A stretch of 64,000 nt of DNA from a virus (IMGVR_UViG_3300043436_004623:17298-81297); one strand, 5' to 3'. Numbered from the stretch's first letter, positions 997 through 64,000 are shown. The notes: a model not told the origin generated them from the sequence alone. Numbers and translations are program-made.

Positions 997-1002
997 AAAA
1001 AT

Positions 1003-3892: not shown

Positions 3893-3901
3893 ACAAAATA
3901 G

Positions 3902-3930
3902 AATATAATATAAATAAAATCAAATGTCAA
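3902..3930 (-). promoter_or_regulatory. sigma70-type promoter ahead of the rfbH-rmlB-E1 block
   Basis: TTGACA (3930-3925), 17-nt spacer, TATATT, in the short gap before ATG 3892. Confidence 0.6.
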
Positions 3931-5728: not shown

Positions 5729-5736
5729 AATTTATT

Positions 5737-6489: not shown

Positions 6490-6491
6490 AA

Positions 6492-7349
6492 TTATTTTTG
6501 TTTTATAAAAGATACATAATGATTATAATCTATATTTGATATATTCCATCTTGATCTATATATATCAGTTTCAAAATTTAAATTTTTGGATGAATGGATT
6601 ATTTTAAATGGTATTTTTTTCCCATCAACAAATAAATTACATTTATTTGCTTCATCATCATGATACTGTATATCTAAATTCAATTGTCTTACTAATATGC
6701 TATATAAAGTTTGATCATGCCTTCCCGTTCCCCAACCATTAGGACAAGTTCCATTATCTATAAAATTATTAATATCTTTGCATAATTCATACATTGGGTC
6801 AATTAGGGAATTTTTAATTTTTCTAGAAACCCCTTGAAATCCAGCATCAATTCCAAAAATATCATCATTTAAAATCCAAGAATTTTCTTTTGAATTTAAA
6901 TTGAATTTTTTTATGATATTATCTGTTGTCATCCATTTTATAGAATGTCCACAATCAAATAATAAATATCCATTTTGTTCTATATGTTTAAAAAGATTTT
7001 TTAAGCATTTTAGTATTGTTGTTCCAGAATCTAGATATAAAATATTTTCGTGAATATCAATAGATTGTTTAATTATAACAGGTTTCCATGAAAATAATCC
7101 TTTAACTTTTCTATTAATATCTGTTTGTAAATCTTCAATAATATATGGATTTATTTTTTCTACTTGATATACATTGGTATATTTAATTGAATTAATTTTA
7201 TTAATACTATCTTGTGAAAGACCTAAATCATAAACCATTATTTCGCCTATATCATTTTCATTATGTTTGAAAATGCTTCCTATTAAATTAAACAATAAAG
7301 GCAAGTGTTTATCATCACTAGCTATGCAGAAATTAATTTTATTTTTCAT
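6492..7349 (-). CDS. Putative glycosyltransferase (DUF1647-like)
   Basis: MVYDLGL, FSWKPVII, ILYLDSG, RHDQT motifs. Confidence 0.65.
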   Translation of the reverse strand: MKNKINFCIASDDKHLPLLFNLIGSIFKHNENDIGEIMVYDLGLSQDSINKINSIKYTNVYQVEKINPYIIEDLQTDINRKVKGLFSWKPVIIKQSIDIHENILYLDSGTTILKCLKNLFKHIEQNGYLLFDCGHSIKWMTTDNIIKKFNLNSKENSWILNDDIFGIDAGFQGVSRKIKNSLIDPMYELCKDINNFIDNGTCPNGWGTGRHDQTLYSILVRQLNLDIQYHDDEANKCNLFVDGKKIPFKIIHSSKNLNFETDIYRSRWNISNIDYNHYVSFIKQK

Positions 7350-8178
7350 ATATATTCATTCCCCAATCTCCTAAATTTGGAATATTATATTTTTGCGTTT
7401 GTTCTTTAATAAATTGCAATTTATAATTGTCTTTATCTAATAATTTAGAATAAATATTTGGATCTATCTTTAGATTGTATGAAAATTTAGAAAGTTTCCA
7501 ATCAAAGTCATTAACCGAACTGTCGTATGCTGAACGTGGAACAGTATTTATATTATGATTTAAATTATTAATATAATCTGTTATTTTCCAAAAATATTGT
7601 TTTATTGCGGCAGTTTTTTTATCTAGCCACTGTAAATGAGCAATAAATAATGAGTTCTTATCAAATATTAGATTATTATTTGTGCTTGGTAAATGAGTTG
7701 AATGCATTTGAGCATAATTAAATAATGCTCTATGTTCATAAGAGCCAATCCTATCCATTAAATTATTTTCCCAAGGGCCATCTATTCTTATAGTGTCAAT
7801 ATCTGTGTATTGAATCCAATTCAAATGAAATGTACAATCTCTATTATTTTCTAATATATATTCTAATTCTTTTTTATCAATGTTCCCATCTAAATATTCA
7901 TCAGAATCTAAACATATAATATTTTTAGAATATTTAAATGCCTCATCATATAGAGCTTGTCTTATATCGGTTTCTATAAATAATTCATGATCTTCTCTAT
8001 GAGAAGATAAGATGCTTAATATATTATATTTTTCTTTATTTTCTTGTAAAAACTCATATGTTTCATCATTAGAATTATCTACAAAAAATACAAAGGAGTC
8101 TGCATATTTTTGCCATATAGGAAGCATTTCTCTTAATAAGAAAAGCTCATTTCTAGTCATTGTTATTTGAGTGATCAT
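7339..8178 (-). CDS. Glycosyltransferase, GT2-like
   Basis: MTRNELFLL, FVDNSNDET, ICLDSDEYL (DxD). Confidence 0.7.
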   Translation of the reverse strand: MITQITMTRNELFLLREMLPIWQKYADSFVFFVDNSNDETYEFLQENKEKYNILSILSSHREDHELFIETDIRQALYDEAFKYSKNIICLDSDEYLDGNIDKKELEYILENNRDCTFHLNWIQYTDIDTIRIDGPWENNLMDRIGSYEHRALFNYAQMHSTHLPSTNNNLIFDKNSLFIAHLQWLDKKTAAIKQYFWKITDYINNLNHNINTVPRSAYDSSVNDFDWKLSKFSYNLKIDPNIYSKLLDKDNYKLQFIKEQTQKYNIPNLGDWGMNIYEK

Positions 8179-8864
8179 TTATAGTTATTTTGAATTTCTT
8201 TATCTTCTTCTTGTGCTAATTGCATATTCAATACAGAAACCGATTCTTCTCTATAAAAATATGAACCAATGAATTCTGGTATCTTTTTAAATTTATAGTT
8301 ATTTTTAGAAAGTTTTAGCCACATATCATAATCACTAGATGATTTATATTTTTCATTAAAATAATTACACTCCTCAATGGCTGATTTTTTTACAAGAGGA
8401 AATGGCCCACAAAAACAAAACTGTAATAATAATTCATGAGAATACTCAGGCCAAACTCTAACCCCTGTTAAGTCGTCAACATTTTGAGATTTTATTTGGA
8501 CGTGTGATCCATAAAATAAATCTATTTCTGAAAATTTATTAATGTATTTTGAGTAAATGCTTAATGCTGATGGGTATAAAATATCATCCGTATTCCAATT
8601 AACAATATAATTACCACTTGAGTTTTTAATTCCTATATTCCACGCTTCATAGACGCTGATTCTGGTGGAGCATTCTATAATTTTTATAGAAATGCCATCT
8701 CTAAAATTAAAGTTTTTAATCTTAGATATAGATTCATCTGTTGAATTAGCATCAATGAAAATTATTTCAAAAAAATCTTCTAGTTGATCATTTACATAAT
8801 TTAAAAATTTATCTAAAAAATTAGAAGAATTATATACAGAAGTTATTACTGAAATCTTATTCAT
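8175..8864 (-). CDS. Glycosyltransferase family 2
   Basis: ISVITSVYN, IDANSTDES, WNTDD, DYDMWLK; start placed at ATG 8864 because it forms an ATGA overlap with the upstream stop. Confidence 0.9.
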   Translation of the reverse strand: MNKISVITSVYNSSNFLDKFLNYVNDQLEDFFEIIFIDANSTDESISKIKNFNFRDGISIKIIECSTRISVYEAWNIGIKNSSGNYIVNWNTDDILYPSALSIYSKYINKFSEIDLFYGSHVQIKSQNVDDLTGVRVWPEYSHELLLQFCFCGPFPLVKKSAIEECNYFNEKYKSSSDYDMWLKLSKNNYKFKKIPEFIGSYFYREESVSVLNMQLAQEEDKEIQNNYK

Positions 8865-9712
8865 GCTTGTTCTATTTTTTGCCAAAATAGCTGAGAGGCA
8901 TTTTGACAGTTTTCTTTAAAAACTAATGATCCTTTATTTAAAAATTCTTTTAAACTTCCTATTTTAGATTGATCACCAATAAATTGGCATCCACATAATA
9001 AAGCTTCTGCGATCATCCTGCAAAATGGTTCATTTACAACTGGGGAATGGTAAACATATTTAGATTTTTTAAATATATTTGATATCTCAGAATGAGATAC
9101 TTTATCATGTATTTTTACATTTGTCAATGGAGATAATTGATTAAATATATTTTGATCTTGAGTCCAACCAAATATATCTATATTTCTATTTGGATTTTTT
9201 TTACAAAATTCAATTAAATTATCTGATCCTTTAAGCGGGTGAATAAACCCACAATAAACTATATCATATATTTTCTCAGAACCGTCTTCATAAAATAAAG
9301 ACGTATCTATTGGATCGTAAACTATTTCTATATTATTAAAATAATCCCCATAGTTGCTTTTAAAAAAAGATGCATGAAATTCAGATAAAAAGAAATTTAT
9401 TTTTGATGATGTAAATATTTTTTTACGCAATTCATCGTCTAAATAAGAACAAGAATCGTGCTCAAGGCGAACATGATTTTCATGATTTAAAATAAAATCA
9501 ATTAGATATTTAGAAGTTTGATTAATAGCCTCTAAATTAGAACTTATCACTAGATCATATCTAGAAATTAAATTTAATGGAGACGAGTCATAATTATGTA
9601 ATGTAATATTATGACCAAGTTCAATACCTTTTTTAATAATTAAATCATTACTAACTTGAGAACCACCAGAGTTATGGTTTAAGCTAAAGTCTGAAATAAA
9701 AAGAATATTCAT
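8861..9712 (-). CDS. Glycosyltransferase, GT4/GT-B-like
   Basis: ILFISDF...GGSQ, YCGFIHPLKG, EPFCRMIAEALLCGC (EX7E). Confidence 0.8.
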   Translation of the reverse strand: MNILFISDFSLNHNSGGSQVSNDLIIKKGIELGHNITLHNYDSSPLNLISRYDLVISSNLEAINQTSKYLIDFILNHENHVRLEHDSCSYLDDELRKKIFTSSKINFFLSEFHASFFKSNYGDYFNNIEIVYDPIDTSLFYEDGSEKIYDIVYCGFIHPLKGSDNLIEFCKKNPNRNIDIFGWTQDQNIFNQLSPLTNVKIHDKVSHSEISNIFKKSKYVYHSPVVNEPFCRMIAEALLCGCQFIGDQSKIGSLKEFLNKGSLVFKENCQNASQLFWQKIEQA

Positions 9713-9732: not shown

Positions 9733-10716
9733 TTAAAGCTCTTCTTCTTCAAAAAAATCTTCAATATTTTCAAGATCTGGGTTTTCTGTAAAAATTTGAT
9801 CTTGATCAATGAATGTAGAATCATCCCATCCCCAATCCAATCCATCATCATCACTTAATAAAAGCTCTTCAGCAGATGCCATTGACGAAACAGGTTTAGC
9901 TGACCAGAATTTACAGCTCCAATAACGAGCTTTCCATTTTGGTCCGACATTAGTATCACATTGATGACGTGCTCTAAAACTTTTTCTACGTTCTGGATCG
10001 TCACGACGAATTTCCATATTTGGATCACCAAATTTAACCATTACGGTGTTGCCTTTATCATTTTTAACATAAACGCCAAATTTCTTATTTGATCCACTTG
10101 GTAATCTAAATGGTTTATTAAGAGTCTTTTTTTCAGCTTCAGAATAGTCGATATCATCTAATTCAATATCACCTTCTTCTTCAATATCCACACCAGCTTT
10201 AACTAAGTCAATACGAGCTAAATCAAAATCAATTGAATCGAATTCCCAAAAACAATCTTCTGGTTTTTGTTCATAGTAAAGTTCCTCACCTCTAGCAACA
10301 TCTTGATCTGCGGCACGATAAGAATCTTTAACTTTACCACCTTTCTGCATTTTTAAAAACATATTGACTCTGGCCATTGCCCAGCTATTTCTAGTCTGGC
10401 CAGGTCTATGAGAAACGGAAAATGCTCCAAGTCCACGACGATAGACTTTTTTAAGTTGATTTAAAGTAACTTTTTTATCATATTTTTCATTATGATCAGA
10501 GACTTTCTGCTTTAAAGAGTTAATTACTTTTTCAGTAAAAGTAATTTTTGAATCAGAATCTGAAGATGCTGAATCTGGTTTATTTTTTTCTGAACCCTTT
10601 CTACGCTCAGATGGTTTAGAAGGTGTTTGCGCTCCACTTTTTGGTCCAGGTCTTGATGCTGCATCAGACTCGACTCCAAAAAAACTTCTTAATTTAGATG
10701 AAAAATCAACTTCCAT
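9733..10716 (-). CDS. Hypothetical two-domain protein heading the glycosylation operon
   Basis: Basic domain YRRGLGAF...WAMARVNMFLK, then KKFGVYVK...VKFGDPNM...RRKSFRARH.C...ARYWSCK, acidic tail; GTGTAA motif 10 nt upstream. Confidence 0.7.
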   Translation of the reverse strand: MEVDFSSKLRSFFGVESDAASRPGPKSGAQTPSKPSERRKGSEKNKPDSASSDSDSKITFTEKVINSLKQKVSDHNEKYDKKVTLNQLKKVYRRGLGAFSVSHRPGQTRNSWAMARVNMFLKMQKGGKVKDSYRAADQDVARGEELYYEQKPEDCFWEFDSIDFDLARIDLVKAGVDIEEEGDIELDDIDYSEAEKKTLNKPFRLPSGSNKKFGVYVKNDKGNTVMVKFGDPNMEIRRDDPERRKSFRARHQCDTNVGPKWKARYWSCKFWSAKPVSSMASAEELLLSDDDGLDWGWDDSTFIDQDQIFTENPDLENIEDFFEEEEL

Positions 10717-12416: not shown

Positions 12417-13388
12417 TTAAAACAAATCGTCTTCACTGAATGATTGATTTTTTTTGCTATACTCGACTGGTCTTGAGTGAAAGAAGTCAGTCATGTTGTT
12501 GCCCAAAAGTTCTTCATCAAACCATGTTGTACATGATATAAGATTTTCATCAATTTTAAATACTTTTGGAAAATTAATTTGAGATAGTGATTCATTGATT
12601 CTGTTTTTAATGAATTCCTTTAAAATATCTGCAGATAATCCATCTTCGTTGATTCCATTCACCATCCAATCAACGATTTTAGATTCTGATTTAAAAGCCT
12701 CTTCAGCCTCATGAAGAATTCTCTCTTGAAGATCTTCGTCGAAAAGTTCTGGATGCTCCTCACGAATTGTGTTAATTATTTTAATACCAACTAAAGCATG
12801 AATGTTTTCTTCATTACGAGTATATTTTACCTGTTGATCAGTATCTTTAAGAACATTCTTAAATCTTGCAAACCAATTGATAATATAAAATTGAGAAAAT
12901 AAAGACACATTCTCAACAAATAAAGTAAATAGAATTAAAGCATAAAGATATTGCTTCTTTGAATCTTTATAGAATTTATGCGTGTACTTTTTTAAGTACT
13001 TAACTCTTCCTTGAATCCACTCAAGTTTAAGATTTTCATCAAAAACATCTTCTAAATCAAGAACGCTAATAAGTCTTTCGTATGCGCTATTGTGAATAAC
13101 TTCGATATTAGCCATTACATAACCAAGATCTTGAAGCGATGGGTGTGGTAAGTTTTCACCAAGCTTGGCCCAAAATGTTTTAACAGCAACTTCAATTTGT
13201 CCAATTGCTGATAATGTGCGAACAATAATCTCTCTTTCTTGATCAGTCAATTCGGTTTTGAATTGTTGAACATCCGCTTTAAATGAAAATTCCTTGTCTG
13301 TCCAAAAGCCATTATGCATGGCTTCAATAAACTGTTCTGTCCAAGGGTACAAATTAGGTTTGCGGGAGATTTGTTCTTCAAAGATCAT
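12417..13388 (-). CDS. nrdB: Class I ribonucleotide reductase beta subunit
   Basis: GQIE, EVIHNSAY (radical Tyr), VENVSLFSQF, EENIH; start reassigned to ATG 13388 (MIFEEQ), 11 nt after GTGTAA. Confidence 0.95.
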   Translation of the reverse strand: MIFEEQISRKPNLYPWTEQFIEAMHNGFWTDKEFSFKADVQQFKTELTDQEREIIVRTLSAIGQIEVAVKTFWAKLGENLPHPSLQDLGYVMANIEVIHNSAYERLISVLDLEDVFDENLKLEWIQGRVKYLKKYTHKFYKDSKKQYLYALILFTLFVENVSLFSQFYIINWFARFKNVLKDTDQQVKYTRNEENIHALVGIKIINTIREEHPELFDEDLQERILHEAEEAFKSESKIVDWMVNGINEDGLSADILKEFIKNRINESLSQINFPKVFKIDENLISCTTWFDEELLGNNMTDFFHSRPVEYSKKNQSFSEDDLF

Positions 13389-17141: not shown

Positions 17142-17963
17142 ATGAATTTAAAAATAAATGTAGAAAAATCAAATATTATATTAAATAATTTAAATTTATC
17201 TAATAAAAAAATATCTCAATTAATAAATGTATCAGAAACTACTGTAGAAAAATTTCTTAAAAAGAGTGGTATTAAAAAAGGAAGGAGAAAACTCTCTTTA
17301 AATGAGTCTTTTTTTGAAAACATAAATACTAATGATAAATGTTATATACTTGGATTAATATATGCAGATGGGTGGAATAACGTCTCTGGTAATAGATGGG
17401 GAATTCAATTAACTAAAGATGATGAATATATATTATATGAGATATCTAAAATTTTAGACTACGGTGGTTCTATTAAAACCCTTAAACCATCTTGTGAAAA
17501 CGGAAAGTTAAGATCAAGGTTAGAATTATGTAGCAAAAAAATGTGTAACGATTTATTAAATTTAGGAGTTGTTCAAAATAAAAGTTTAGTGTTAGATTTT
17601 TATGAAGAAAAGCTCCCGTTAAACTTTATAAATGATTTTTTTAGAGGCGTTTTTGATGGAGATGGTTCTTTATATATATCACCTAAATTTACTCATTTTT
17701 CAGTAAAAATTACATCTTCTACTATATTTTGCAAATCTTGTCAAAGATTTTTAGAAAAACATATTAATTACAAACCTTCTTTAAAAATTTATAAACAAAA
17801 CCCTAAATCATGTGATTTAATTATTTCTGGTAGAAATAACGTATTAAATTTTTTAAATTGGATTTATAATAGTGAAAGCGATTTAAAACTTTCTAGAAAA
17901 TATAATAAATTTTTATCTATACCTAATGGACCTAAAAAAAATCCACACAACTCATCAAAGTAG
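17142..17963 (+). mobile_element. Free-standing LAGLIDADG homing endonuclease
   Basis: ILGLIYADGW and FFRGVFDGDGSL motifs, N-terminal HTH-like segment. Confidence 0.9.
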
Positions 17964-50487: not shown

Positions 50488-53400
50488 TCAATTAATAAAC
50501 ATTGGTGTGAATGTGGCTTGGACATTTTGCTCTTGAAGATTAATCATGTCAAAATATGTTTGCATCATCCAATTTCCTAAAACTAATGTGGAATACGAGT
50601 CTTTTCGAGCTTTATCTGCCCCTCTTTGTTTTTTCAAATTTAATGGGAGATCGAAACTCTGAGTTCCTTGAGCTGACGTGTTCACTTGAATAAGTGCGCA
50701 TTGTACTTTAATAAGTTCAACATTGTCTTTTAATTGTTCAATAAAATCAATTTGTCTAGCGCCAGATTCTTTTTCATCATCATGTCTAGAAAATTTTAAT
50801 GTTTGAATTGGGATATTAGCTAACCTTTGTTTATTATAAGCTTCATCCATTGCTGCGCCAGCGAACCATATTCTTTTATGGTCGAATGCGGCCTGTAATG
50901 ACTCGTTAGCATATCTAATCCAAGCTGAACTTGGTTTCCTCAAGTGAACTATTTTTCTTGTGGATATATTGTATTGATTTCTTGCGTCTCTAAGAGCTTT
51001 ATCGTATTCTTGTGGATTATCAAAATCCGCATCAAACATATCTAATTTAATACCAGCCTTTTTAAATATTTCACTTTCATTGCATGAATTAATGAATTGA
51101 ACACCTCCGTTATAGTCTCCAACAATTGAAACAATATTAAAATGAGCAATTAAGTAATGAATATATTCTATATGCTTTTTTAAATTTGTTCCAGAAAGTG
51201 CATAGCTGTGGACAACTACACCATTTCTTTTTTCTGGATTAATTTTAATTAGTTGCATAGAGAAGTCGTCGGAACCATCACTCTCTGACCAAGAAGGGTC
51301 AAATGCTAATATATATTGCGCTGTAGGATCTCCTATAACCTCAACAGCTTGCCCTTCTCCATCTGGTATAGTACAAAGCGCCATCTTACTTACCTTGAAG
51401 TATCCAGAGCTATCGTCAGTAAATACAGCACCAAACTCACGATCAAATTGAGATTGACTCATTGTAGCTTTTGCTTGATTAATTAAGTTCTGGTCATAAA
51501 GCTGATCTGGAGCGCAGTCATAACTAAAATGCATAATTACTCTATGAGCATTATCTTTTTCGGCGTTGTTTAAAATCAATGACTCATATTGTTGATATAA
51601 TTTATAAAGATATTCAAATTTATAACTTGCTGAAGACAGGCCAATAATTTTATTATTTGGCCAACGATAACGATCTTCTTCAGACATTTTACCTTGTTTA
51701 ATTAATGTACTTTCCAAATCATATAATTTTTGTCTTTCAGTTGGATTTTCTACAACAGAAAGGAATGGCAGAATAACTTCATTTAAAATTTTCTCTGGCA
51801 TCAAAAGAAGCTCATCGATAATCATCCTTTGGAAACGGAAACCGCGAAGTTTTTCACCATCACCAAGTGGTAATGCTGTAATCTTACTTCTTCCGATCTC
51901 AATAACCCACTCATCGTTTGTCTTAGATATTCTATTAATACATTGTGATAAAAATCCAGCCTTTGGACTGCGAGATATTTCCTCAATCTTACGGAAAATC
52001 ATTTTAGACTGCCTGAATGATTTACTAATAATTCCAATATGAACTCCTTGATTTAAAATTGCGTCTAAAATAGCAAAAATTGCAGTAGAGAAAGATTTAC
52101 TCATACCGCGAGAATTATGATGAACAAAACCACTACCAACATAACACTCCTCATTTTCTACAGTAATATCTATAGATTTAACAAGACAATTATCTATTGA
52201 TTTAATTGGCGAAAATACAACGTTTTCATTTTTAATACTATCAATAATTTGACGAGTATTATCAGAAATATTTATAAGTGAATCAAAATTATTTTGAGAA
52301 AAACCCTTACCCCAAGATCCTCTTTTACCAGTTACTTTTTCTTTTGAGCCGTCTTTTTTAATAATTTCGCAAAAATTTGGTATTAAGTTGTTTTGATAAT
52401 TTTTATTTTTTGATCTATTAATAATTTTTTCCAAATTGCTTTTCTTGTGAAAAACTTGAAAGTCTATTGAATTTTGAAACTCTCTCAAAGAATTAACATC
52501 ATTTGATATAACTAAATCATAATATGAGACTCCTTTATGCTCACCCGATTTTCTTAAATTAGATATTATTCCAAGATTATTTAAAATCATTTTAATCTGT
52601 CTAAGAAGTTGTAATGAAGTATTTTTTAAACCAACTTTACTGCTAGTAGATAAATATGAAGCATAGCCATCAGCATCAAACAATCCCCCAATTAGTGCGC
52701 ATAATTCATTTCTAGAACATTGTAAAATGGAATCACAGATAACTTTATCTTTTGATTTTAAAGATCTATCCCAACCTATACTTTCTAACCAAGAAACAAT
52801 CTCTCTATTAAATATTGAATATTCATAAAAACTTAAATTTTTTGTTCTTTGTCTTGCGTAACTTTTTAAATCATTATCTCTTAAAAACTTTAAGCAAGTC
52901 TCTTGTACTTCAAAATGTTCAGAACAATAATGAATTCCATCTTGATTAACCCATCCATCTCCTAAAACATAGCCAAGTAAATAAAATAAATATGGAGAGC
53001 GGTTTACTTTAGATCCTTCAGTTATATCTTTATCGCCCCATATTTCAGTAGCTATTTTAATTGGAATAGAATCTCCAATTTTTAAATTTTCAATTTCTTT
53101 AAAAACAAACTTGCCATCATCATAAACTAAAACTTTATGACCGATTTTTGCTTTAAAACTATCGCCAGATTGTAGTTTTATATCTAAACCTTGTTCTTCT
53201 GGATTTTCTTTTTTATCTGAAACAAGATTAATTTCATTTCTTGATCTGACATAATCTCCAATTTGGATCTCTTTAATTTTTTTAAATCCATTTTTTGATA
53301 AGACATATTCATTTTCTTCTAAACACCATATCCCCAAAAAGTAATCAGTTTCCATCATTGCTTTAATTGCCATGTGCTGGAATGGAAATAGCGAAACGCC

Positions 53401-53559
53401 AGTAATTAATTCAGAAGAGAAAGATGGGTTTTCTTTTAAAAATTTATATAATAAAATTTTAGCTTTTCTTTCATCAATAAAACCGTTTGTATCAAGAATT
53501 TCTTGATTAATATTTTTAAATTTTTTATTTAATTTTTGATTGCCAGTTTCCCAACTCAT
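50488..53559 (-). CDS. terL: Terminase large subunit with intein
   Basis: LFPFQ, Walker A SRGMSKS, LRGFRF, Walker B IIDE, nuclease LAFDPS...DDFS...RKDSYS. Confidence 0.93.
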   Translation of the reverse strand: MSWETGNQKLNKKFKNINQEILDTNGFIDERKAKILLYKFLKENPSFSSELITGVSLFPFQHMAIKAMMETDYFLGIWCLEENEYVLSKNGFKKIKEIQIGDYVRSRNEINLVSDKKENPEEQGLDIKLQSGDSFKAKIGHKVLVYDDGKFVFKEIENLKIGDSIPIKIATEIWGDKDITEGSKVNRSPYLFYLLGYVLGDGWVNQDGIHYCSEHFEVQETCLKFLRDNDLKSYARQRTKNLSFYEYSIFNREIVSWLESIGWDRSLKSKDKVICDSILQCSRNELCALIGGLFDADGYASYLSTSSKVGLKNTSLQLLRQIKMILNNLGIISNLRKSGEHKGVSYYDLVISNDVNSLREFQNSIDFQVFHKKSNLEKIINRSKNKNYQNNLIPNFCEIIKKDGSKEKVTGKRGSWGKGFSQNNFDSLINISDNTRQIIDSIKNENVVFSPIKSIDNCLVKSIDITVENEECYVGSGFVHHNSRGMSKSFSTAIFAILDAILNQGVHIGIISKSFRQSKMIFRKIEEISRSPKAGFLSQCINRISKTNDEWVIEIGRSKITALPLGDGEKLRGFRFQRMIIDELLLMPEKILNEVILPFLSVVENPTERQKLYDLESTLIKQGKMSEEDRYRWPNNKIIGLSSASYKFEYLYKLYQQYESLILNNAEKDNAHRVIMHFSYDCAPDQLYDQNLINQAKATMSQSQFDREFGAVFTDDSSGYFKVSKMALCTIPDGEGQAVEVIGDPTAQYILAFDPSWSESDGSDDFSMQLIKINPEKRNGVVVHSYALSGTNLKKHIEYIHYLIAHFNIVSIVGDYNGGVQFINSCNESEIFKKAGIKLDMFDADFDNPQEYDKALRDARNQYNISTRKIVHLRKPSSAWIRYANESLQAAFDHKRIWFAGAAMDEAYNKQRLANIPIQTLKFSRHDDEKESGARQIDFIEQLKDNVELIKVQCALIQVNTSAQGTQSFDLPLNLKKQRGADKARKDSYSTLVLGNWMMQTYFDMINLQEQNVQATFTPMFIN
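52114..53325 (-). mobile_element. 404-aa intein with LAGLIDADG endonuclease in terL
   Basis: Begins CLEENEYVLS after W78 and ends FVHHN followed by Ser; internal LLGYVLGDG and LIGGLFDADG. Confidence 0.95.
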
Positions 53560-55535: not shown

Positions 55536-56252
55536 TTAGTCTAATATAATATCGTTATCTCTAATTATTTCTTCAGCTTTTTCTCTGAGCATTTTTTTAA
55601 GATTTTTTATTTGTTTATATCCAGCTTTTCTGTTTTTTTCATTTGTTTTATAACCCATGAATTTAGCGACTTCTTCTTCAGGCTTTTCTTCGAAAAATAA
55701 CATTATATAAACAGTATAATGTTCTTCGCTTAATTTTGTCTTTAATAATTCATTTAATTTTTCTATTGCCGAATCAAAATGAATAGTTGTGTCTGGTCTT
55801 GAATCTATTTCTTTTATATGATTCTCCAAAGCAAGGGGTAACTTAATTCCATACCCCGCTTTCTTTTGCTTTGACCATTTAGCATACATGCCGCAAGTTA
55901 AATTTTGACTACCACTTCTAGTCCAAGAACAAAGATTGTCACCCATATTGAACTTGCATTGCATACAAGGCTTGACATAATTAGTATAATTGTTTCTAAT
56001 TATATTTTTAATTTGATTGGAAGCTATGCGAGCTATCCAAGGTTCAAGTGGAAGAGATTGATCCCACATATCCCACTTTTTGTGGATGTGAATTTTAATA
56101 ACCTGCTCTACATCAGAAAAGTCAAACCAATTGATTGCATTTAACTGCCACTTAGATCTAAACTTTCTTATAGTAGCATCAATGATATCGGAATAATCTT
56201 CATATTTATGTTTTTTATTCCCCACTGGTAGATTTCTCGCTAATAAAATCAT
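55536..56252 (-). CDS. Second phage sigma-70-like factor
   Basis: DVEQVIKIHI.KKW..WD...LEPWIARIASNQIKN (region 2), Cys cluster, EEEVAKFMGY HTH; start codon uncertain. Confidence 0.75.
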   Translation of the reverse strand: MILLARNLPVGNKKHKYEDYSDIIDATIRKFRSKWQLNAINWFDFSDVEQVIKIHIHKKWDMWDQSLPLEPWIARIASNQIKNIIRNNYTNYVKPCMQCKFNMGDNLCSWTRSGSQNLTCGMYAKWSKQKKAGYGIKLPLALENHIKEIDSRPDTTIHFDSAIEKLNELLKTKLSEEHYTVYIMLFFEEKPEEEVAKFMGYKTNEKNRKAGYKQIKNLKKMLREKAEEIIRDNDIILD

Positions 56253-56574
56253 CTACCGTTTTAGAACGGCGACTCCTCCTTGAAACACCCGAATTACCTT
56301 GCCCAAATAATGAACCAAGAGTAAATTGATTGACACCATCTTCACGTTCAATATCTACTTGTAGATTTCGAATATTAGGAACATGTTGAACGTTGGTGTT
56401 TTCACCATCGTCTTCTTCATCCTCTTCATCAATATCATACTTAGCGCTTGTTACTTGCTTTTTTGGGGGCAAGAAAGAAGAACCAAAAGACTGACCACAG
56501 TTGGAGCAGAATTTTGGTTGAGAGTATGTATATTGATGTTTGGTTCCGCAGCTTGAACAGAATATTTGACTCAT
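56215..56574 (-). CDS. Zinc-ribbon protein
   Basis: FCSSCG...PKFCSNCG followed by an acidic region. Confidence 0.75.
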   Translation of the reverse strand: MSQIFCSSCGTKHQYTYSQPKFCSNCGQSFGSSFLPPKKQVTSAKYDIDEEDEEDDGENTNVQHVPNIRNLQVDIEREDGVNQFTLGSLFGQGNSGVSRRSRRSKTVDDFISEKSTSGE

Positions 56575-58534: not shown

Positions 58535-58820
58535 ACAAAAGTACTTACACTTTTTCAGTCTGGGATTTTTTTTTATGTTTGGTATTGGTGAATTTAGATA
58601 GACCGATAACGTTTTCGACAAATGGGGGAGGGGTACGTTGGTTTGGAGAGGGGAGATTGAGGAAAGTGTCCCCCCGCCCTTTCCCACGCAAACGACTCGC
58701 AGTTTTTTTGAGAAATGGGGGGAGGGTGTCAAGTGTTTTCTTTAGAATCTCGCAAAATTCTTTTCGAAAAAAAACGATTTTTTTTCTTGTGATATGGGGG
58801 GTATCTGGTAATGTTCTTAC

Positions 58821-58991
58821 ATGTCAAACGAACTCCAACTCCTCCGCATCGGTGATGTAATCGAATCCAAGCAAGGCAAATTCAAGGTTGCCGACATTGT
58901 AGAAGAACAATGGTATGAGCCTTGGGTTGTGCTGGTAAAGTGGAACGGAAACGCTTGGGAAGATACGAGAATCCAATTCAAAGACCTCTGA
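58821..58991 (+). CDS. 56-aa early protein (MSNELQLLRIGDVIESK...)
   Basis: Manual translation; own promoter; below ORF-track cutoff. Confidence 0.75.
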   Translation: MSNELQLLRIGDVIESKQGKFKVADIVEEQWYEPWVVLVKWNGNAWEDTRIQFKDL

Positions 58992-59044
58992 AAATAAAAA
59001 ATCTTTTTCCTTGCTCTAACCTCAAAATCTGCTAACTTTCTCTC

Positions 59045-59203
59045 ATGTCAAACGAACTCGCCAACCTCTACAGCGCCGAAACTCTTGCCGCTCTTGCCGA
59101 ACTCGAAGCAGTCGCGCAACGCTTTGAGCAACTGGCAATCCGCACGGGTGAAAACGCCCAAGCATTCATCGAAGAATGCCGCGAAATAAAATGGGAAAAG
59201 TGA
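59045..59203 (+). CDS. 52-aa helical early protein (MSNELANLYSAETL...)
   Basis: Manual translation; own promoter; shares MSNEL start with the previous gene. Confidence 0.75.
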   Translation: MSNELANLYSAETLAALAELEAVAQRFEQLAIRTGENAQAFIEECREIKWEK

Positions 59204-59246
59204 AAATTTTCCTTGCGTTCCCTCTCTCATCTGCTAACTTTCTCCC

Positions 59247-59441
59247 ATGTCCAACACGACCACCACCACCCGCCCACGCATTAACTCCACCGTAGACTTT
59301 CGCTATGAAGGTCGCCGCTTCTGCGGTAGCGTCACCGATAGGAACACGCTCGACGGCGGCTTTGTCATCATCTATCGTGACCTTGCAGGAGATCGCGCAT
59401 TCATTGGCTCAAATCAAATTGAAATCATCAAAGTCTGGTAA
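59247..59441 (+). CDS. 64-aa early protein, paralog of 63233..63439
   Basis: Own promoter; MSNTTTTTRPRIN...GSVTDR.TLDG.F.IIYRD shared with the paralog. Confidence 0.85.
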   Translation: MSNTTTTTRPRINSTVDFRYEGRRFCGSVTDRNTLDGGFVIIYRDLAGDRAFIGSNQIEIIKVW

Positions 59442-59461
59442 ACATAACACATAGAAAAAAA

Positions 59462-59641
59462 ATGAAACACACACTAGCAATCCTTGGCTCTGCCATTGTC
59501 ACCATGTCGCCTGTCTTTAGCCTTTGCGCCTTCTGTATCTACGGAGGACGAAGCGAAGTGTTCGACGCTGTATGCTTCTTAACCTTTGGCGCGACCTGCT
59601 ACTGCCTCGCACATCTTCAATCATACATCAAACATAACTAA
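59462..59641 (+). CDS. 59-aa Cys-rich hydrophobic (membrane) protein
   Basis: Manual translation MKHTLAILGSAIVTMSPVFSLCAF...; A/C-rich leader. Confidence 0.6.
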   Translation: MKHTLAILGSAIVTMSPVFSLCAFCIYGGRSEVFDAVCFLTFGATCYCLAHLQSYIKHN

Positions 59642-59644
59642 CAC

Positions 59645-59869
59645 ATGAGCGCACGAAACAAAGCACGAAAGATGATCAACGCACAAGTCTACGCCATCAC
59701 AGGCTTGTCACTCGATGATCTACCCGACACCGCTCTTCTATGTGACCACATGGATACATTGGAAGAGATGATAGAAGAAGCGGACAGCATGACTCCCATG
59801 AGTGAGCTTCTCGACTACGCACAAGAAGCCGCAATGGAATTTCTAGAAGAAGAAGGAATGTCGGCATGA
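59645..59869 (+). CDS. 74-aa acidic early protein
   Basis: ORF track; ITGLSLDDLPD...acidic helical C-terminus. Confidence 0.75.
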   Translation: MSARNKARKMINAQVYAITGLSLDDLPDTALLCDHMDTLEEMIEEADSMTPMSELLDYAQEAAMEFLEEEGMSA

Positions 59870-59976
59870 GTGAAGAACTGCATGACATAGTTGCAAGCGC
59901 CGTGTGCTTTACTACTACGCTTGTAGTAGTATGGCACATTGTGCATAGCATAACTACATTGCCACTGCCTCTGTAA
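59866..59976 (+). CDS. 36-aa hydrophobic peptide
   Basis: ATGA overlap with the previous stop; its stop codon lies in the first bases of repeat element 1. Confidence 0.4.
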   Translation: MSEELHDIVASAVCFTTTLVVVWHIVHSITTLPLPL

Positions 59977-60049
59977 CTCGTTGAGAATGAGTGAGTTACG
60001 GGCGGGGGCGGGGCCGCGCCCCGTAACTCGTTGAAAATCAATGAGTTAT
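59973..60049. repeat. Palindromic repeat element 1 (27-bp palindrome, 23-bp GC core, 27-bp palindrome); core inverted relative to elements 2-4
   Basis: GTAACTC-N13-GAGTTAC, GGGCGGGGGCGGGGCCGCGCCCC, GTAACTC-N13-GAGTTAT. Confidence 0.95.
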
Positions 60050-60165
60050 GTTTTTCGCTTCTTTATCATAAATAATCAATCTGTCAAGAAAAAAGTGCGA
60101 AAAATAAAAAATAAAAAATGAAAAAAGATGTTGCATTTTATCGGTTCCGAGGTTATTCTTTGCGC

Positions 60166-60228
60166 ACGAGCTTCGGGTACTCGCTAAATCACTCTAGAGA
60201 GTTGAGCATCTCTTAAAACTGCTCACCA
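60166..60228 (+). ncRNA. Candidate small structured RNA with H-type pseudoknot
   Basis: Promoter TTGCAT-17-TATTCT (60131-60159) with no ATG downstream; hairpin CGAG/CTCG; pseudoknot AGAGA/TCTCT plus TGAGCA/TGCTCA with loop TAAAAC. Confidence 0.6.
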
Positions 60229-60294
60229 CTTTCCAAGCTGAAAAAAAACGAAAATTTTTCTTGCTACACTCCGAAAATCTGCTAACTTTCTCTC

Positions 60295-60522
60295 ATGACC
60301 AACACCACTACCACCGCCGCCTTGTTCCGCGCCACTAAAAACTTTACTGTTGCTTACTGGCACAGCAAGCACACCACCAAAATCACCAAGGGCGAAACGA
60401 TCATGCCAAACGAAAATTTCCGCATCTTGAATGGCTTCTTCTTCTGGGTTGAGCGCGTGAGCAATGAGCAAACCACGCAAATGACAAAACCCTTGCCAGT
60501 CGAATTGATCGAAGAAATCTGA
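60295..60522 (+). CDS. 75-aa early protein
   Basis: ORF track; own leaderless promoter. Confidence 0.8.
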   Translation: MTNTTTTAALFRATKNFTVAYWHSKHTTKITKGETIMPNENFRILNGFFFWVERVSNEQTTQMTKPLPVELIEEI

Positions 60523-60565
60523 AAATTTTTCTTGCCATTCTCTCAAAATAAACTAACTTTCTCTC

Positions 60566-60700
60566 ATGTCCATTGACCAACTCACCCACACCGATTCAGT
60601 CGAACTGCTCGCCGCATTTCACGAAGCCGCAACGCAAGCCATGTATGAGTGGCAAGCCGAACAAGCCGCCGAATACTTTTCTTCACTTCTTGAAAAATAA
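60566..60700 (+). CDS. 44-aa helical acidic early protein (MSIDQLTHTDSVELL...)
   Basis: Manual translation; own promoter. Confidence 0.7.
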   Translation: MSIDQLTHTDSVELLAAFHEAATQAMYEWQAEQAAEYFSSLLEK

Positions 60701-60741
60701 AAGTTGACGCAACACAAAAAAAATCTTACTCTTTCCCCGAC

Positions 60742-60891
60742 ATGAACACCACCGAATATAAAGAAATGTTTGCCAAGGTTCAAGCTGGCCAAATCACTCA
60801 ACAAGTCTGGTTTGACTACTGCTTCCAACAATTGAGCCAAATCATGGAAGACAACAAGGATGTTTTCATCCGCTTAAAAAATCGCGGATAA
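60742..60891 (+). CDS. 49-aa early protein (MNTTEYKEMFAKVQAGQIT...)
   Basis: Manual translation; own promoter. Confidence 0.7.
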   Translation: MNTTEYKEMFAKVQAGQITQQVWFDYCFQQLSQIMEDNKDVFIRLKNRG

Positions 60892-60965
60892 TAAAAAAAT
60901 AAATTGACACAATCCGAAAAATCTGCCATACTTCTCCCGCAACAATAAACAAAACAAAGCACACC

Positions 60966-61220
60966 ATGAACATAAACTACCAAGCATCCGCACTTGAAAT
61001 CGCAAACGCACTCGTCGGCAAAACCGTTCGCTACTTTGCGAATGATTCCAAAATCAAAAATGATGGCGTTCGCGTCTTCAAAGTTGAAGCAGTCGATCAT
61101 GTTTCGATTGGCAAAAAATCGGGTCGTCGTTATGTCACTATCCTTGCCAAGGATGTTGACGATGGCGGCGAAAGCAAGCATCGCAACCTTCACCTCGCGG
61201 GAATCGATCTCGTGGTGTGA
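60966..61220 (+). CDS. 84-aa beta-rich early protein
   Basis: ORF track; promoter TTGACA-17-CATACT at 60904-60932 and A/C-rich leader. Confidence 0.8.
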   Translation: MNINYQASALEIANALVGKTVRYFANDSKIKNDGVRVFKVEAVDHVSIGKKSGRRYVTILAKDVDDGGESKHRNLHLAGIDLVV

Positions 61221-61258
61221 GTGGTGAAGGGTGCTGGGCATCACACTAAAAGGCCCAC
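61213..61258 (+). ncRNA. Second H-type pseudoknot related to the 60196-60226 one, overlapping a stop codon
   Basis: GTGTGA/TCACAC plus TGGGC/GCCCA with loop TAAAA. Confidence 0.5.
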
Positions 61259-61283
61259 TTTGTCAACCCTAAAAAATAAAAAA

Positions 61284-61448
61284 ATGAAATCCGCCGTTCT
61301 TTGTCTTTTCTTTTCTTCTTTACACATTGCAATTTTTTCGATTGTGCAAGCGTATGACATCATACCACACGATCTAAACTTTATTGTTTTTTGGCTTTGC
61401 CTCGCGTTGACTTGGGCAGGGTGCTTCAAAAGCGCATTGCAAGAATAA
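61284..61448 (+). CDS. 54-aa two-helix membrane protein
   Basis: In frame with ORF 61221..61448; start at ATG after an A-tract; two hydrophobic stretches. Confidence 0.6.
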   Translation: MKSAVLCLFFSSLHIAIFSIVQAYDIIPHDLNFIVFWLCLALTWAGCFKSALQE

Positions 61449-61459
61449 TTTTTCGGGCA

Positions 61460-61505
61460 TGGGTGAAAAGTCGCGCCTCTGTGGTAGGGGGCGCGACTAC
61501 ACCCA
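61460..61505. terminator. Strong GC hairpin ending an early transcription unit (no U-tract)
   Basis: TGGGTG-AAA-AGTCGCGCCTCT/AGGGGGCGCGACT-A-CACCCA. Confidence 0.5.
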
Positions 61506-61511
61506 AAAGTC

Positions 61512-61572
61512 ATAACCGCTTGAAAATGAGCGAGTTACGGGGCGCGGCCCCGCCGCCGCCCGTAACTGTCAA
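61512..61572. repeat. Palindromic repeat element 2 (right palindrome truncated to GTAACTGTCAA)
   Basis: ATAACCGCTTGAAAATGAGCGAGTTAC, GGGGCGCGGCCCCGCCGCCGCCC, GTAACT. Confidence 0.95.
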
Positions 61573-61661
61573 GAAAAAAATGCAATTTTCTGAAAGTTTT
61601 TTTTTCTGCAAAAAGTGAAAATTTTTCTTGCGATATCGCGGGGATGTGATAACTTTCTTGC

Positions 61662-61799
61662 ATGACTGACAGCAACACCACCCCCGACACAGAAAACCAC
61701 AACGGAACTTTCGGCTTGAATGATCGCCCATCTTTCAGCGACAGCGAAGACTTTGGCTTGTTCGGTTGGTTGGGCGAAGAAGAGCAGGAAGAAAAATAA
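61662..61799 (+). CDS. 45-aa acidic early peptide (MTDSNTTPDTENH...)
   Basis: Manual translation; own promoter. Confidence 0.65.
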   Translation: MTDSNTTPDTENHNGTFGLNDRPSFSDSEDFGLFGWLGEEEQEEK

Positions 61800-61846
61800 G
61801 TAAACTTTTTTCTTGCTTAAATCATCCAATCAACTATCTTTCTCTC

Positions 61847-62002
61847 ATGTCTACCACATCACTCATCATCGCCATCGACAACCTCCGCAAGCAACTTGAA
61901 CTTTGCGAAGACTTCTCCGATTGGGAAGGTTGCGAAAGAATCGAAGAAGAAATTTCTTCTCTTGAAGCAATACTGGAAGAAAAGAATTTGACAGAAGCAT
62001 GA
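61847..62002 (+). CDS. 51-aa acidic helical-hairpin early protein (MSTTSLIIAIDNLRKQL...)
   Basis: In frame with ORF 61766..62002; start fixed by promoter geometry. Confidence 0.75.
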   Translation: MSTTSLIIAIDNLRKQLELCEDFSDWEGCERIEEEISSLEAILEEKNLTEA

Positions 62003-62121
62003 AAACCATCACCATCACCATCCAACCCGCAAAGCCTCGCATCCGCTTTGCCCCTGCAACGATTCGCTTTGTAGACAAAAAGAAAAAACAAAAAAAAGAA
62101 TCTTGCAGAAATAAAAATTGA
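61999..62121 (+). CDS. 40-aa highly basic peptide (MKTITITIQPAKPRIRFAPATIRFVDKKKKQKKESCRNKN)
   Basis: Manual translation; ATGA overlap with the previous stop. Confidence 0.55.
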   Translation: MKTITITIQPAKPRIRFAPATIRFVDKKKKQKKESCRNKN

Positions 62122-62155
62122 CAACCCGCCCCAAAAACTTTATCTTTCTCCCGCC

Positions 62156-62329
62156 ATGAAAAACGCAATACTCGAAAGCCTCTTCCTTCTTTCCTGCTCC
62201 ATCCTTTGCGGCTCTGGACTTTTCCTCATTGAATGCCCTGCTTGGTTGCAAAATAGTTTCCTTGCAATGATGGTTGCCCCAAGTCTCTGGTTTATTCCTA
62301 AAAGAATTTTCATCGAAATGAAAAAATAA
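62156..62329 (+). CDS. 57-aa membrane protein (MKNAILESLFLLSCSILCG...)
   Basis: Manual translation; own promoter TTGACA-17-TATCTT. Confidence 0.65.
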   Translation: MKNAILESLFLLSCSILCGSGLFLIECPAWLQNSFLAMMVAPSLWFIPKRIFIEMKK

Positions 62330-62368
62330 GTTGATAATCTCGAAAAAAAATCTTACTCTTTCCCCGCC

Positions 62369-62578
62369 ATGAAATACACCATAACACGCAACGCATTCGC
62401 CACCACCTACCGCACACCCTTGTTTGATCTTAAGATCCACAAGTTCATGAAGCATCCTCGCCCACTTTTGGTTTTCAGCGATGGACGCGAGGCCGCTAGC
62501 GTTTTTGTTGACAGAAAACAAAGCGCCGATCTTCTGCGAAATAAGTTTAAAAACCACATTGACAGACGCAACGCATAA
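62369..62578 (+). CDS. 69-aa basic early protein
   Basis: ORF track; own promoter TTGATA-17-TACTCT. Confidence 0.8.
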   Translation: MKYTITRNAFATTYRTPLFDLKIHKFMKHPRPLLVFSDGREAASVFVDRKQSADLLRNKFKNHIDRRNA

Positions 62579-62594
62579 CTAAAAACTCTTTCTG

Positions 62595-62696
62595 TCACCC
62601 GATAGATCGGTACGCCAGCACTAACGCTTGACGAGGTACAAGTACTTGAGCGAATAGGCTGGGTGGACGAGGTTCGACTCCTCGCGGGTGAGACCA
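62595..62696 (+). ncRNA. tRNA-like / tmRNA-TLD-like RNA lacking an anticodon loop
   Basis: Acceptor TCACCCG/CGGGTGA, T arm CGAGG-TTCGACT-CCTCG, encoded 3' CCA, stemless 13-nt D region, long irregular helix in place of the anticodon arm. Confidence 0.75.
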
Positions 62697-62717
62697 CTCA
62701 AACACAAAACAAAAAAA

Positions 62718-63071
62718 ATGAAATCATATATCATCATCCTTGCTGAAATTCTTTTAGTTATCATCTTTGCATCTGCTATGCCGATTGCTCTTTATGCTGG
62801 AGGACAAAACGAACTTGCTCTTTACTCTACTTATATCTTCGGAGCAATCATTCTTTGGTTTTCTATTGTTATGATACATTTAGAATACATTTCCCGAAAA
62901 GTTGGAAAAGAAGATAAACTGGAAAGGGCGAGACATCTTGGATACATACATGGACTAAAAGAAGGTGTTGACAATAACCCTTTTAAGGATGACACGGAAA
63001 GGCATGTGTATCGTTTGGGATACGATGCTGGCGTTTCCGAGTACTGCAGAGTGGCGCATCCAGAAGATTAA
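62718..63071 (+). CDS. 117-aa membrane protein with two N-terminal helices and a soluble C-terminal domain
   Basis: In frame with ORF 62688..63071; ATG after an A/C-rich leader; C-terminal ARHLGYIHG...NNPF...YRLGYDAG. Confidence 0.75.
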   Translation: MKSYIIILAEILLVIIFASAMPIALYAGGQNELALYSTYIFGAIILWFSIVMIHLEYISRKVGKEDKLERARHLGYIHGLKEGVDNNPFKDDTERHVYRLGYDAGVSEYCRVAHPED

Positions 63072-63083
63072 GCTTGACAAGTC

Positions 63084-63144
63084 GTAACTCGTTGAAACCC
63101 AGCGAGTTACGGGGCGCGGCCCCGCCGCCAGCCGTAACTGTCAA
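63084..63144. repeat. Palindromic repeat element 3 (right palindrome truncated)
   Basis: GTAACTCGTTGAAACCCAGCGAGTTAC, GGGGCGCGGCCCCGCCGCCAGCC, GTAACTGTCAA. Confidence 0.95.
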
Positions 63145-63232
63145 GAAAAAAATGCGGTTTTGTGAAACTTTTTTTCTCATAAAAAATGATTTTTTTTGTT
63201 GCGTTTCGAGCGAATTGTGATAACTTTCTTAC

Positions 63233-63439
63233 ATGTCCAACACGACCACCACCACCCGCCCTCGCATCAACACTCTTGTTCAATTCACCTATTGCGGAAT
63301 GAATCTGACTGGAAGCGTCACCGACCGCGACACTCTCGACGGCGCGTTCATTATCATTTACCGCGACCCATACTGCGGCGACCGCTGCACGGTTGCATCG
63401 AGCCGAGTTGAAAATCTGAAAATTTTTCACGGAAAATAA
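63233..63439 (+). CDS. 68-aa early protein, paralog of 59247..59441
   Basis: ORF track; own promoter; clear sequence similarity to the paralog. Confidence 0.85.
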   Translation: MSNTTTTTRPRINTLVQFTYCGMNLTGSVTDRDTLDGAFIIIYRDPYCGDRCTVASSRVENLKIFHGK

Positions 63440-63483
63440 AAAGTTTTTCTTGCGTTTCTCTTAAAATCCATTAATCTACTCCC

Positions 63484-63687
63484 ATGTCCAACACCTACCA
63501 CGCCACCGAAGTTTCCCCCGAAGAATACACCGCCACTCTTGCGGAAGCCGCCGAGCTTGCGCTCGCGGACTACCACGCGCACCTCGACCAGCTTGAGGCC
63601 CAGCGCCAGCCCGACGATTCGGATTGGAACTACCACCCCGAAGACGACTACAACGAATACACGATGGGCTACGATGGCGGCTTCTGA
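63484..63687 (+). CDS. 67-aa very acidic early protein
   Basis: ORF track; own promoter; D/E-rich with spaced Tyr/Trp. Confidence 0.8.
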   Translation: MSNTYHATEVSPEEYTATLAEAAELALADYHAHLDQLEAQRQPDDSDWNYHPEDDYNEYTMGYDGGF

Positions 63688-63704
63688 GTCGCCCCATCGC
63701 CTTT

Positions 63705-63781
63705 CTAACTCATTGAAAACAAGCGAGTTACGGGGCGCGGCCCCGCCCCCGCCCGTAACTCATTCAAAACCAATGACTTAC
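63705..63781. repeat. Palindromic repeat element 4 (complete)
   Basis: CTAACTCATTGAAAACAAGCGAGTTAC, GGGGCGCGGCCCCGCCCCCGCCC, GTAACTCATTCAAAACCAATGACTTAC. Confidence 0.95.
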
Positions 63782-63801
63782 AGCGGCCCATGTAGTCTAT
63801 T

Positions 63802-63902
63802 AGCTATTAACTGATTTGCTATTTGCTATTTTGCTATTTGCTACTGTTGATTTGTCAATAACAAAATTGCAGTTTGATTTGTCAAGAAGAAAATTGCAGT
63901 TT
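63802..63902. repeat. GCTATT micro-repeats followed by a tandem 27-bp-period direct repeat
   Basis: About five GCTA(T/C)T units; TGATTTGTCAA-N5-AAATTGCAGTTT at 63848-63875 and 63875-63902. Confidence 0.8.
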
Positions 63903-63952
63903 ATTCTGAAAATAAAATTTGACACCTCGCGTCTTTGTGTTAAGTTTCCCCC

Positions 63953-64000
63953 ATGCAAATCATTAACCACATCCTGTCACTATTCACACGCGACCGCAAA
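63953..64000 (+). CDS. Early protein, truncated by window end (MQIINHILSLFTRDRK...)
   Basis: TTGACA-16-TAAGTT-6 nt-ATG. Confidence 0.65.
   Translation, partial: MQIINHILSLFTRDRK

Follow-up and report, generated by a model that had tools for sequence, protein, structure and literature searches.

The 64,000-nucleotide stretch of viral DNA IMGVR_UViG_3300043436_004623:17298-81297, referred to here as the window, is part of a tailed phage whose gene content was read by protein family scans. The phage is a siphophage of 125-150 kb in a lineage known only from lake metagenomes. Near-identical sequence is carried by about 19 lake-water metagenome runs, and a search of a cultured-phage collection returned no match for a 5-kb region or for one structural protein. 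The GC content of the genome is about 32%, and that of the last 5.3 kb of the window (58.7-64 kb) is 43-45%. This last part holds the early region (58740-63954), whose genes, about 19 small ORFans, are all encoded on the plus strand, and among these genes stand four copies of a composite element of 55-77 bp, made of one or two 27-bp symmetric sites and a 23-bp all-GC spacer. Against the cultured-phage collection, a 91-bp element gives chance matches of 18-33 nt only, including a Nodularia phage match that falls within coding sequence.

Elements 1 and 4 (E1 and E4) have the full form. E1 spans 59973-60049 (left palindrome 59973-59999, core 60000-60022, right palindrome 60023-60049), and E4 spans 63705-63781 on the plus strand (left palindrome 63705-63731, core 63732-63754, right palindrome 63755-63781). 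Elements 2 and 3 (E2, 61512-61567; E3, 63084-63139; both on the plus strand) are truncated: their left palindromes (61512-61538 and 63084-63110) and cores (61539-61561 and 63111-63133) are followed by the remnant GTAACT (61562-61567 and 63134-63139). The left palindrome of E2 is imperfect (ATAACCGC...GCGAGTTAC). All four cores are exactly 23 bp long and contain G and C only. A 23-mer, GAGTTACGGGGCGCGGCCCCGCC, is present in four copies in the window, at 60007-60029 on the minus strand and at 61532, 63104, and 63725 on the plus strand, with 0 copies in 100 dinucleotide shuffles. The core of E1 is inverted, being the exact reverse complement of the E4 core with its C-rich strand on the minus strand, and GTTTTTC follows directly after the E1 right palindrome. 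Since the loops of the flanking palindromes hold TTGAAAA on the plus strand, the core is flipped independently of the arms.

The elements begin 13-64 nt past a stop codon, except that E1 overlaps the stop by 3 nt, and their cores are 1529, 1572, and 621 bp apart. A preliminary description of the region had reported this anatomy, namely a 27-bp palindrome and an exactly 23-bp GC core in each of four elements, a second palindrome complete in E1 and E4 and cut to GTAACT in E2 and E3, a reversed E1 core, and spaced positions at the ends of transcription units; all of it was borne out. No further copies of the palindrome were found in the 64-kb window beyond the four elements. In E2 and E3, the GTAACT remnant is joined to a conserved A/T-rich leader and promoter. 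The leader behind E2 (61568-61661, plus strand) contains GTCAAGAAAAAAATGC, phased A/T tracts, and a predicted promoter, TTGC-N-TAACTTTC, which lies 4 nt ahead of the ATG at 61662. It is 81-95% identical to the leader behind E3 (63140-63232, plus strand; A/T tracts and a predicted promoter, up to the ATG at 63233) and to leaders in relatives. A separate GC-rich hairpin, AGTCGCGCC-N11-GGCGCGACT, lies just upstream of E2 (61469-61498), with TTTT after it on the minus strand only.

A count over the genomes of relatives, which the preliminary description had proposed, gives about nine elements over 9-10 kb and at least 14 in a second clade, confined to one or two regions; the window, whose end falls within the early region, holds the first four. 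The module measures 55-170 bp across genomes and is repeated 8-16 times in each. In the records of four fragmentary relatives, elements occur nowhere outside the early region, and a complete relative of 147.7 kb has seven full elements in two clusters. The start of the element lies at a median of about 18 nt past the stop codon, and in one relative elements start 13-17 nt past tRNA genes. Between the element and the promoter that follows it lie anywhere from 35 to more than 200 nt.

Sequence and structure in the palindromes

A palindrome-only scan of viral contigs found the palindromes in at least 120 stretches, the longest of these contigs being 148 kb, and is the source of the palindrome and spacer statistics given here. 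From the listed loci, 674 distinct 27-mers were chosen only by the outer pattern TAAsT-N15-AsTTA, and their consensus is GTAAsTCGTTGA-N3-TCAACGAsTTAC. Inner positions are strongly conserved, with T10 and A18 at 99% and A12 and T16 at 92%. Watson-Crick pairs are as frequent at each arm pair as independent arms would give. For instance, positions 5 and 23 are paired in 345 palindromes with 343 expected, as C or G occurs in each arm independently, and positions 11 and 17 in 435 with 433 expected. Positions 9 and 19 are paired in 447 with 473 expected; single changes at this pair number 114 and 109, and the compensated double change to C-G only 8. Similarly, an arm is complementary to its own partner at 4.96 of 7 positions and to the arm of another copy at 4.91 of 7. 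Arms without covariation, in this set as in smaller ones, argue against a selected hairpin, cruciform, or attC-like fold, and suggest inverted half-sites for a two-fold-symmetric protein instead. What is conserved in the palindromes is sequence and not structure, and the elements are probably sites for a two-fold-symmetric DNA-binding protein. The preliminary description had leaned toward cruciform or attC-like sites, which these arms do not support; the operator pairs that it listed as an alternative are the best fit to the sequence evidence.

Among the listed loci, the spacing from palindrome to palindrome peaks at 50 bp (n = 247), with 51 bp (n = 40) and 48 bp (n = 15) next to it. The spacers of these loci comprise more than 250 different sequences with no sequence in common, and have a mean GC content of 86% in loci of 42% GC. 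As the spacers vary in sequence and are constant in length and GC-richness, the core GGGGCGCGGCCCC is specific to its clade and not family-wide. Spacers fold only marginally better than their shuffled versions (z = -0.41), and their orientation is weakly biased, with the C-rich strand coding at about 2:1. One locus (L022 of genome G005, 12687-12814) has a triple palindrome array in which one 23-bp spacer is not GC-rich (GACAACAGAAAAATCATGCAGTC), the spacing being kept there without the GC content.

The module may be understood as an array of sites recognized by a single sequence-specific DNA-binding protein with two-fold symmetry, presumably a dimer. The full form has a pair of these 27-bp sites, which the GC-rich spacer keeps exactly 23 bp apart (50 bp from centre to centre). 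The module sits between units, closely following the final stop codon or tRNA of one early transcription unit and preceding the A/T-rich upstream sequence and first promoter of the unit that comes after. In that position it would most likely stop or stall the host RNA polymerase, with the bound protein serving as a roadblock or terminator, in a symmetric counterpart of the mycobacteriophage stoperators (PMC9283540); the GC spacer or its hairpin may assist. A polymerase stop of the stoperator kind would explain the position of the elements at the ends of transcription units, and it is in keeping with an early region that, outside the elements, has no canonical terminator on the plus strand. Its effect would be that densely promoted blocks are insulated and that early genes can be shut off. 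Both the binding of a protein and the resulting termination or insulation are what we infer from this arrangement, and a boundary function of the elements is, by our analysis, an evenly balanced proposition.

Several observations weigh against a protein-bound boundary. The average palindrome still pairs at about 9 of 12 positions, which leaves room for a role of an RNA hairpin, and G.U pairs are slightly more frequent than A.C mismatches on the transcribed strand (79 vs. 54). Nor does 50 bp correspond to a whole number of helical turns. Among the conserved neighbours of the elements (PhoH, DUF932, GP88, a sigma factor, a zinc-ribbon protein encoded at 56215-56574 in the window, and an L5 gp82-like protein), no binding protein was found; these neighbours are enzyme-like or of unknown fold and do not resemble repressors. 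Lastly, in one relative (locus L019 of genome G001, about 4560-4600, or 10400-10440 as oriented) a canonical intrinsic terminator, CCCTCGCCCGAAAGGGCGGGGGTTTTTT, lies past the DUF932 gene and directly upstream of an inverted truncated element, so that the element is not needed as a terminator there. The GP88- and DUF932-family proteins, which are bracketed by elements in relatives, were considered as binders or recombinases and set aside, since with numerous invariant residues (C, H, D, and R) they resemble enzymes. Searches of PDB sequences with the two proteins were empty, and their folded models (pLDDT 88 and 78, respectively) had no significant match among solved structures.

The leading alternative to a protein-bound boundary is that the elements are purely RNA-level signals, in which the palindromes and GC core form hairpins in the nascent transcript that terminate, attenuate, or protect 3' ends without a dedicated protein, as proposed by likeness to the PeSL stem-loop, REP elements, and T7 RNase III sites. 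Upon RNA folding, all four window elements are far more stable than their shuffles (z from -4.3 to -5.2), and elements sit at the 3' ends of both genes and tRNAs. The GTAACT retained by the truncated form can close the core against AGTTAC, and the strand biases described above, namely the slight excess of G.U over A.C and the preference for a C-rich coding strand, are also in keeping with a transcript. The right palindrome of E1 together with T5 scores as an intrinsic terminator, the one canonical site of this kind on the plus strand in 58600-64000; however, the other three elements (E2, E3, and E4) have no U tract after the hairpin, and the core is found in either orientation. Furthermore, the 674 palindromes show no sign of compensation at any arm pair and have on average about 2 of 11 arm positions unpaired, the spacers have no more structure than shuffled GC-rich sequence, and a hairpin needs neither strict base invariance nor a strict 50-bp spacing. 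A purely RNA-level function is therefore unlikely. A hairpin promoter of the N4 type (5-bp stem and 3-nt loop, GGGGC-GCG-GCCCC) was rejected, as the orientation of the core varies and the 2728-aa protein of the window is a tape measure protein and not a virion RNA polymerase. In the second clade, another type of hairpin re-uses GGGGCGCGGCC as its stem (e.g., locus L038 at about 1139).

Protein-bound sites might also have a non-transcriptional role, such as a pause or stop in stepwise genome entry, a gyrase site or supercoil domain, a replication-fork barrier, or partition or condensation. The same evidence for a duplex DNA site (the 50-bp spacing and the arms without covariation) would serve these roles equally, as would the symmetry of the sites, the weak orientation bias of the spacer, and the confinement of the elements to a region that is likely to enter the cell and be transcribed first. 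Their close tie to gene 3' ends and their intergenic placement every few genes are nevertheless most simply explained via transcription, and there is no specific support for any of the roles listed, which makes this alternative decidedly unlikely.

Exchange of gene blocks at the elements

The preliminary description had also proposed a cassette-shuffling system of the integron kind, and had suggested a search for blocks permuted among relatives. The gene maps of five relatives are indeed a mosaic, in which gene content differs between relatives at 95-98% identity. For instance, the window gene behind E2 stands behind an extra element in another genome, and one relative has two neighbouring elements with zero genes between them. 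Contigs from other lakes repeat the same joints as the maps of the relatives. Between the window and its relatives, 28 breakpoints were located, of which 14 lie at ordinary gene promoters or ATGs (33% of the region), five in elements (7% of the region), five in the leaders behind elements (9%), and only four in the remaining 50% of the region. As half of the breakpoints are at promoters or ATGs, the unit that is shuffled is often a single gene. The promoter repeats, a family of eight copies of a 77-nt repeat in the early region, form this second class of recombination breakpoints. With the module itself repeated many times per genome and gene promoters repeated as well, the early region is a substrate for homologous recombination.

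No empty site was found in about 950 flank comparisons from 203 full elements, the alternative state being element-block-element. Four such events could be mapped: where one genome has element-block-element, with a block of 664-1746 bp, the other has one hybrid element. In one event the hybrid switches parent in the right palindrome, towards its left; in another within the core; in a third in the right palindrome once more; and in the fourth in the left palindrome. A cross-over place that differs in each of the four events indicates homologous exchange and not a fixed site-specific cut. Searches for tyrosine (PF00589), serine (PF00239), and HUH (PF01797) recombinases, whose co-occurrence the preliminary description had suggested as a check, found none in the records of the five relatives, a set that, with the window added, probably spans most of the genome; nor was a recombinase found among about 40 window proteins scanned. 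These data suggest that general homologous recombination of the phage would delete, insert, and permute blocks and leave hybrid elements behind. The gain and loss of gene blocks by ordinary homologous recombination between elements is likely. Of the shuffling proposed earlier, the part that stands is that blocks bounded by elements differ among relatives: cassette turnover at the elements is real, but it is homologous and takes place at plain promoters as well.

Two further explanations would assign mobility to the elements themselves. The first takes them for selfish, MITE- or REP/BIME-like miniature mobile elements whose copies have multiplied across the early region. Their alternating palindrome mosaic at the 3' ends of transcription units is BIME-like, and a spread of this kind would account for the many copies, the truncated derivatives, and the independent inversion of the core. 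Against this, the flank comparisons gave no empty site, the copies keep to one or two regions in records of 57-148 kb, conservation is position-specific in place of random decay, and no Y1/HUH transposase was found (PF01797). Mobile elements are thus very improbable. The second, a dedicated integron- or resolvase-like system in which the elements are attC- or res-type sites and the blocks mobile cassettes, would fit the appearance and loss of element-bounded blocks with one element remaining, the core flipped between E1 and E4, and a 27-23-27 layout that we take loosely to recall the subsites of resolvase res, yet it can be largely dismissed in view of the variable cross-over points, the half of breakpoints at plain promoters, the arms without hairpin covariation, the genes with promoters of their own, and the tyrosine, serine, and HUH recombinases missing from the records and window proteins scanned.

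Returning to the protein-bound boundary, the whole reading is that the elements are paired-operator boundary modules that double as homology patches for cassette exchange, to which we would assign a probability of roughly one half.

Comparison with known systems

The closest parallel for the exchange of blocks is the PeSL of T4-type phages, an intergenic module of a polyG-polyC stem-loop, an AT-rich region, and a sigma-70 promoter, at which homologous recombination shuffles ORFans (Arbiol et al. 2010, PMC2839356; Comeau et al. 2014, PMC4122927). In both systems, composite intergenic modules are set among small ORFan early genes, in a part of the genome that is hyperplastic, and the module joins a G-run/C-run stem-loop region, an A/T-rich stretch, and a sigma-70-type promoter, which in the window is a predicted one. 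As with PeSLs, insertions, deletions, and replacements among relatives cross over inside the repeated module, apparently by homology. The lineage of the window phage, a siphovirus, is unrelated, however, and PeSLs have no counterpart of the two-fold-symmetric 27-bp sites that flank the GC segment here, with their invariant bases and their fixed spacing of 50 bp.

The closest parallel for the proposed function is the stoperators of cluster A mycobacteriophages, which are bound by L5 gp71, a protein that halts the elongating polymerase (PMC9283540, PMC6550527). Like stoperators, the elements are many copies of a conserved recognition sequence in short gaps between co-oriented genes. On the other hand, stoperators are 13 bp long, asymmetric, orientation-dependent, bound by a monomer, and found across the whole genome of a temperate phage, whereas the elements have 27-bp symmetric sites paired over a GC spacer, are limited to the early region, and have no known repressor. 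A resemblance between the GTAACTGTCAAG tail and the L5 stoperator GGTGGMTGTCAAG was judged a coincidence, as only the reverse-complement TTGACA is common to the two. The conserved inverted repeats of the Streptomyces phage phiC31 may be named beside stoperators, as what we presume to be a close analogue.

Like the REP/BIME sequences of enterobacteria, the elements stand at the 3' ends of transcription units and are mosaics in which imperfect palindromes alternate in orientation; unlike these, they have no RAYT transposase, are not dispersed, and left no empty sites in the comparisons made. With integron attC sites, they share the repetition of imperfect palindromes between small genes of varied content, and they differ in that no integrase was found, the palindromes have no covariation of a single-strand fold, cross-over is not fixed, and the genes have their own promoters. 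The architecture of paired operators and GC spacer appears to be undescribed, and is widespread in an uncultured phage clade. One possibility, which we hold tentatively, is that the elements serve in cis for a phage system not described before, in which a dimeric protein, bound to paired 27-bp operators that a GC spacer holds 50 bp apart at early unit boundaries, would act as a direction-independent terminator or insulator, a stoperator with symmetry, and the elements as cassette linkers, in a large clade of uncultured aquatic siphophages of 100-150 kb.

The phage, its host, and wider meaning

A predicted promoter, TTG-N19-TAnnTTTC, is present at 12 or 13 of the 19 early genes and ends 4 (sometimes 7) nt ahead of the ATG. 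The early promoters take the form TTG-N19-TAACTTTC-TCTC-ATG, and at internal genes A-rich runs take their place upstream. The sigma-A box of Bacteroidota, TAnnTTTG, occupies positions -12 to -5 (PMC9723704). With this geometry, the A of the ATG would be the first transcribed base, and leaderless or near-leaderless mRNAs are predicted. A Shine-Dalgarno sequence was found at none of 39 larger late and middle genes (460-57666), many of which have AGTGTAA about 8-14 nt ahead of the ATG; this motif may act as a late promoter, recognized by the phage's own sigma-like factor (encoded at 55536-56252). The missing Shine-Dalgarno sequence and the TTG-N19-TAnnTTTC-N4-ATG geometry point to a Bacteroidota host, as yet unproven (PMC6847099, PMC9723704). 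An actinobacterial host, first suggested by the L5 gp82, GP88, and DUF932 families in relatives, is weakened by the Bacteroidota-like promoter geometry. A scan of bacterial genomes with the core gave single chance matches in high-GC genomes and no clue to the host. The sole metatranscriptome run contributes three low-depth contigs (58700-59020 and 60369-60958), which are silent on 3' ends.

Protein scans of the window identified a tape measure protein of 2728 aa, tail and baseplate proteins, ribonucleotide reductase, PhoH, and a sigma-like factor. The large terminase gene (50488-53559) is split by an intein with a LAGLIDADG endonuclease domain, and a free-standing LAGLIDADG gene lies at 17142-17963. 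A ten-gene sugar-modification cluster (460-9712) encodes split transketolase/E1-like pieces, an epimerase of the GDP-mannose-dehydratase type, a DegT aminotransferase, a methyltransferase, and several glycosyltransferases. A Pfam scan of the ten largest of the 19 early open reading frames gave no family above its threshold. One of the early genes (62718-63071) encodes a membrane protein of 117 aa whose C-terminus is weakly like ribosome modulation factor (Pfam RMF, E = 0.01, under the family cut-off). Two early genes, 59247-59441 and 63233-63439, are paralogues that begin with the same N-terminus, MSNTTTTTRPRIN, and have 76% identity over a stretch of 58 nt; a breakpoint at 59265 falls just past their common start.

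Rfam and ARAGORN called nothing in the early region. A tRNA-like piece of 131 bp (62570-62700) has a 7-bp acceptor stem (TCACCCG/CGGGTGA), a T-arm (GAGGTTCGACTCCTC) followed by GACCA, and an unusually long middle of about 55 nt, and neither program called it. The piece is an indel polymorphism, as contigs of two other lakes jump from 62569 to 62701. Directly past E4 lies an iteron-like stretch (63790-63925), with four TTGCTAT-type repeats and then two 27-bp tandem copies of TTGATTTGTCAAGAAGAAAATTGCAGT (63847-63900).

A methodological lesson is that palindromes call for a covariation test before they are read as hairpins, cruciforms, or attC-like sites. If the proposed reading is true, the elements would be a compact and portable transcription-boundary module with a defined 27-bp recognition sequence, present in at least 120 viral contig stretches, in phages without a known regulator. 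The 27-mer would then give a handle for finding the regulator of the early genes, and the principle of the PeSL, that regulatory repeats double as linkers for the shuffling of host-takeover genes, would extend to an unrelated siphophage lineage.

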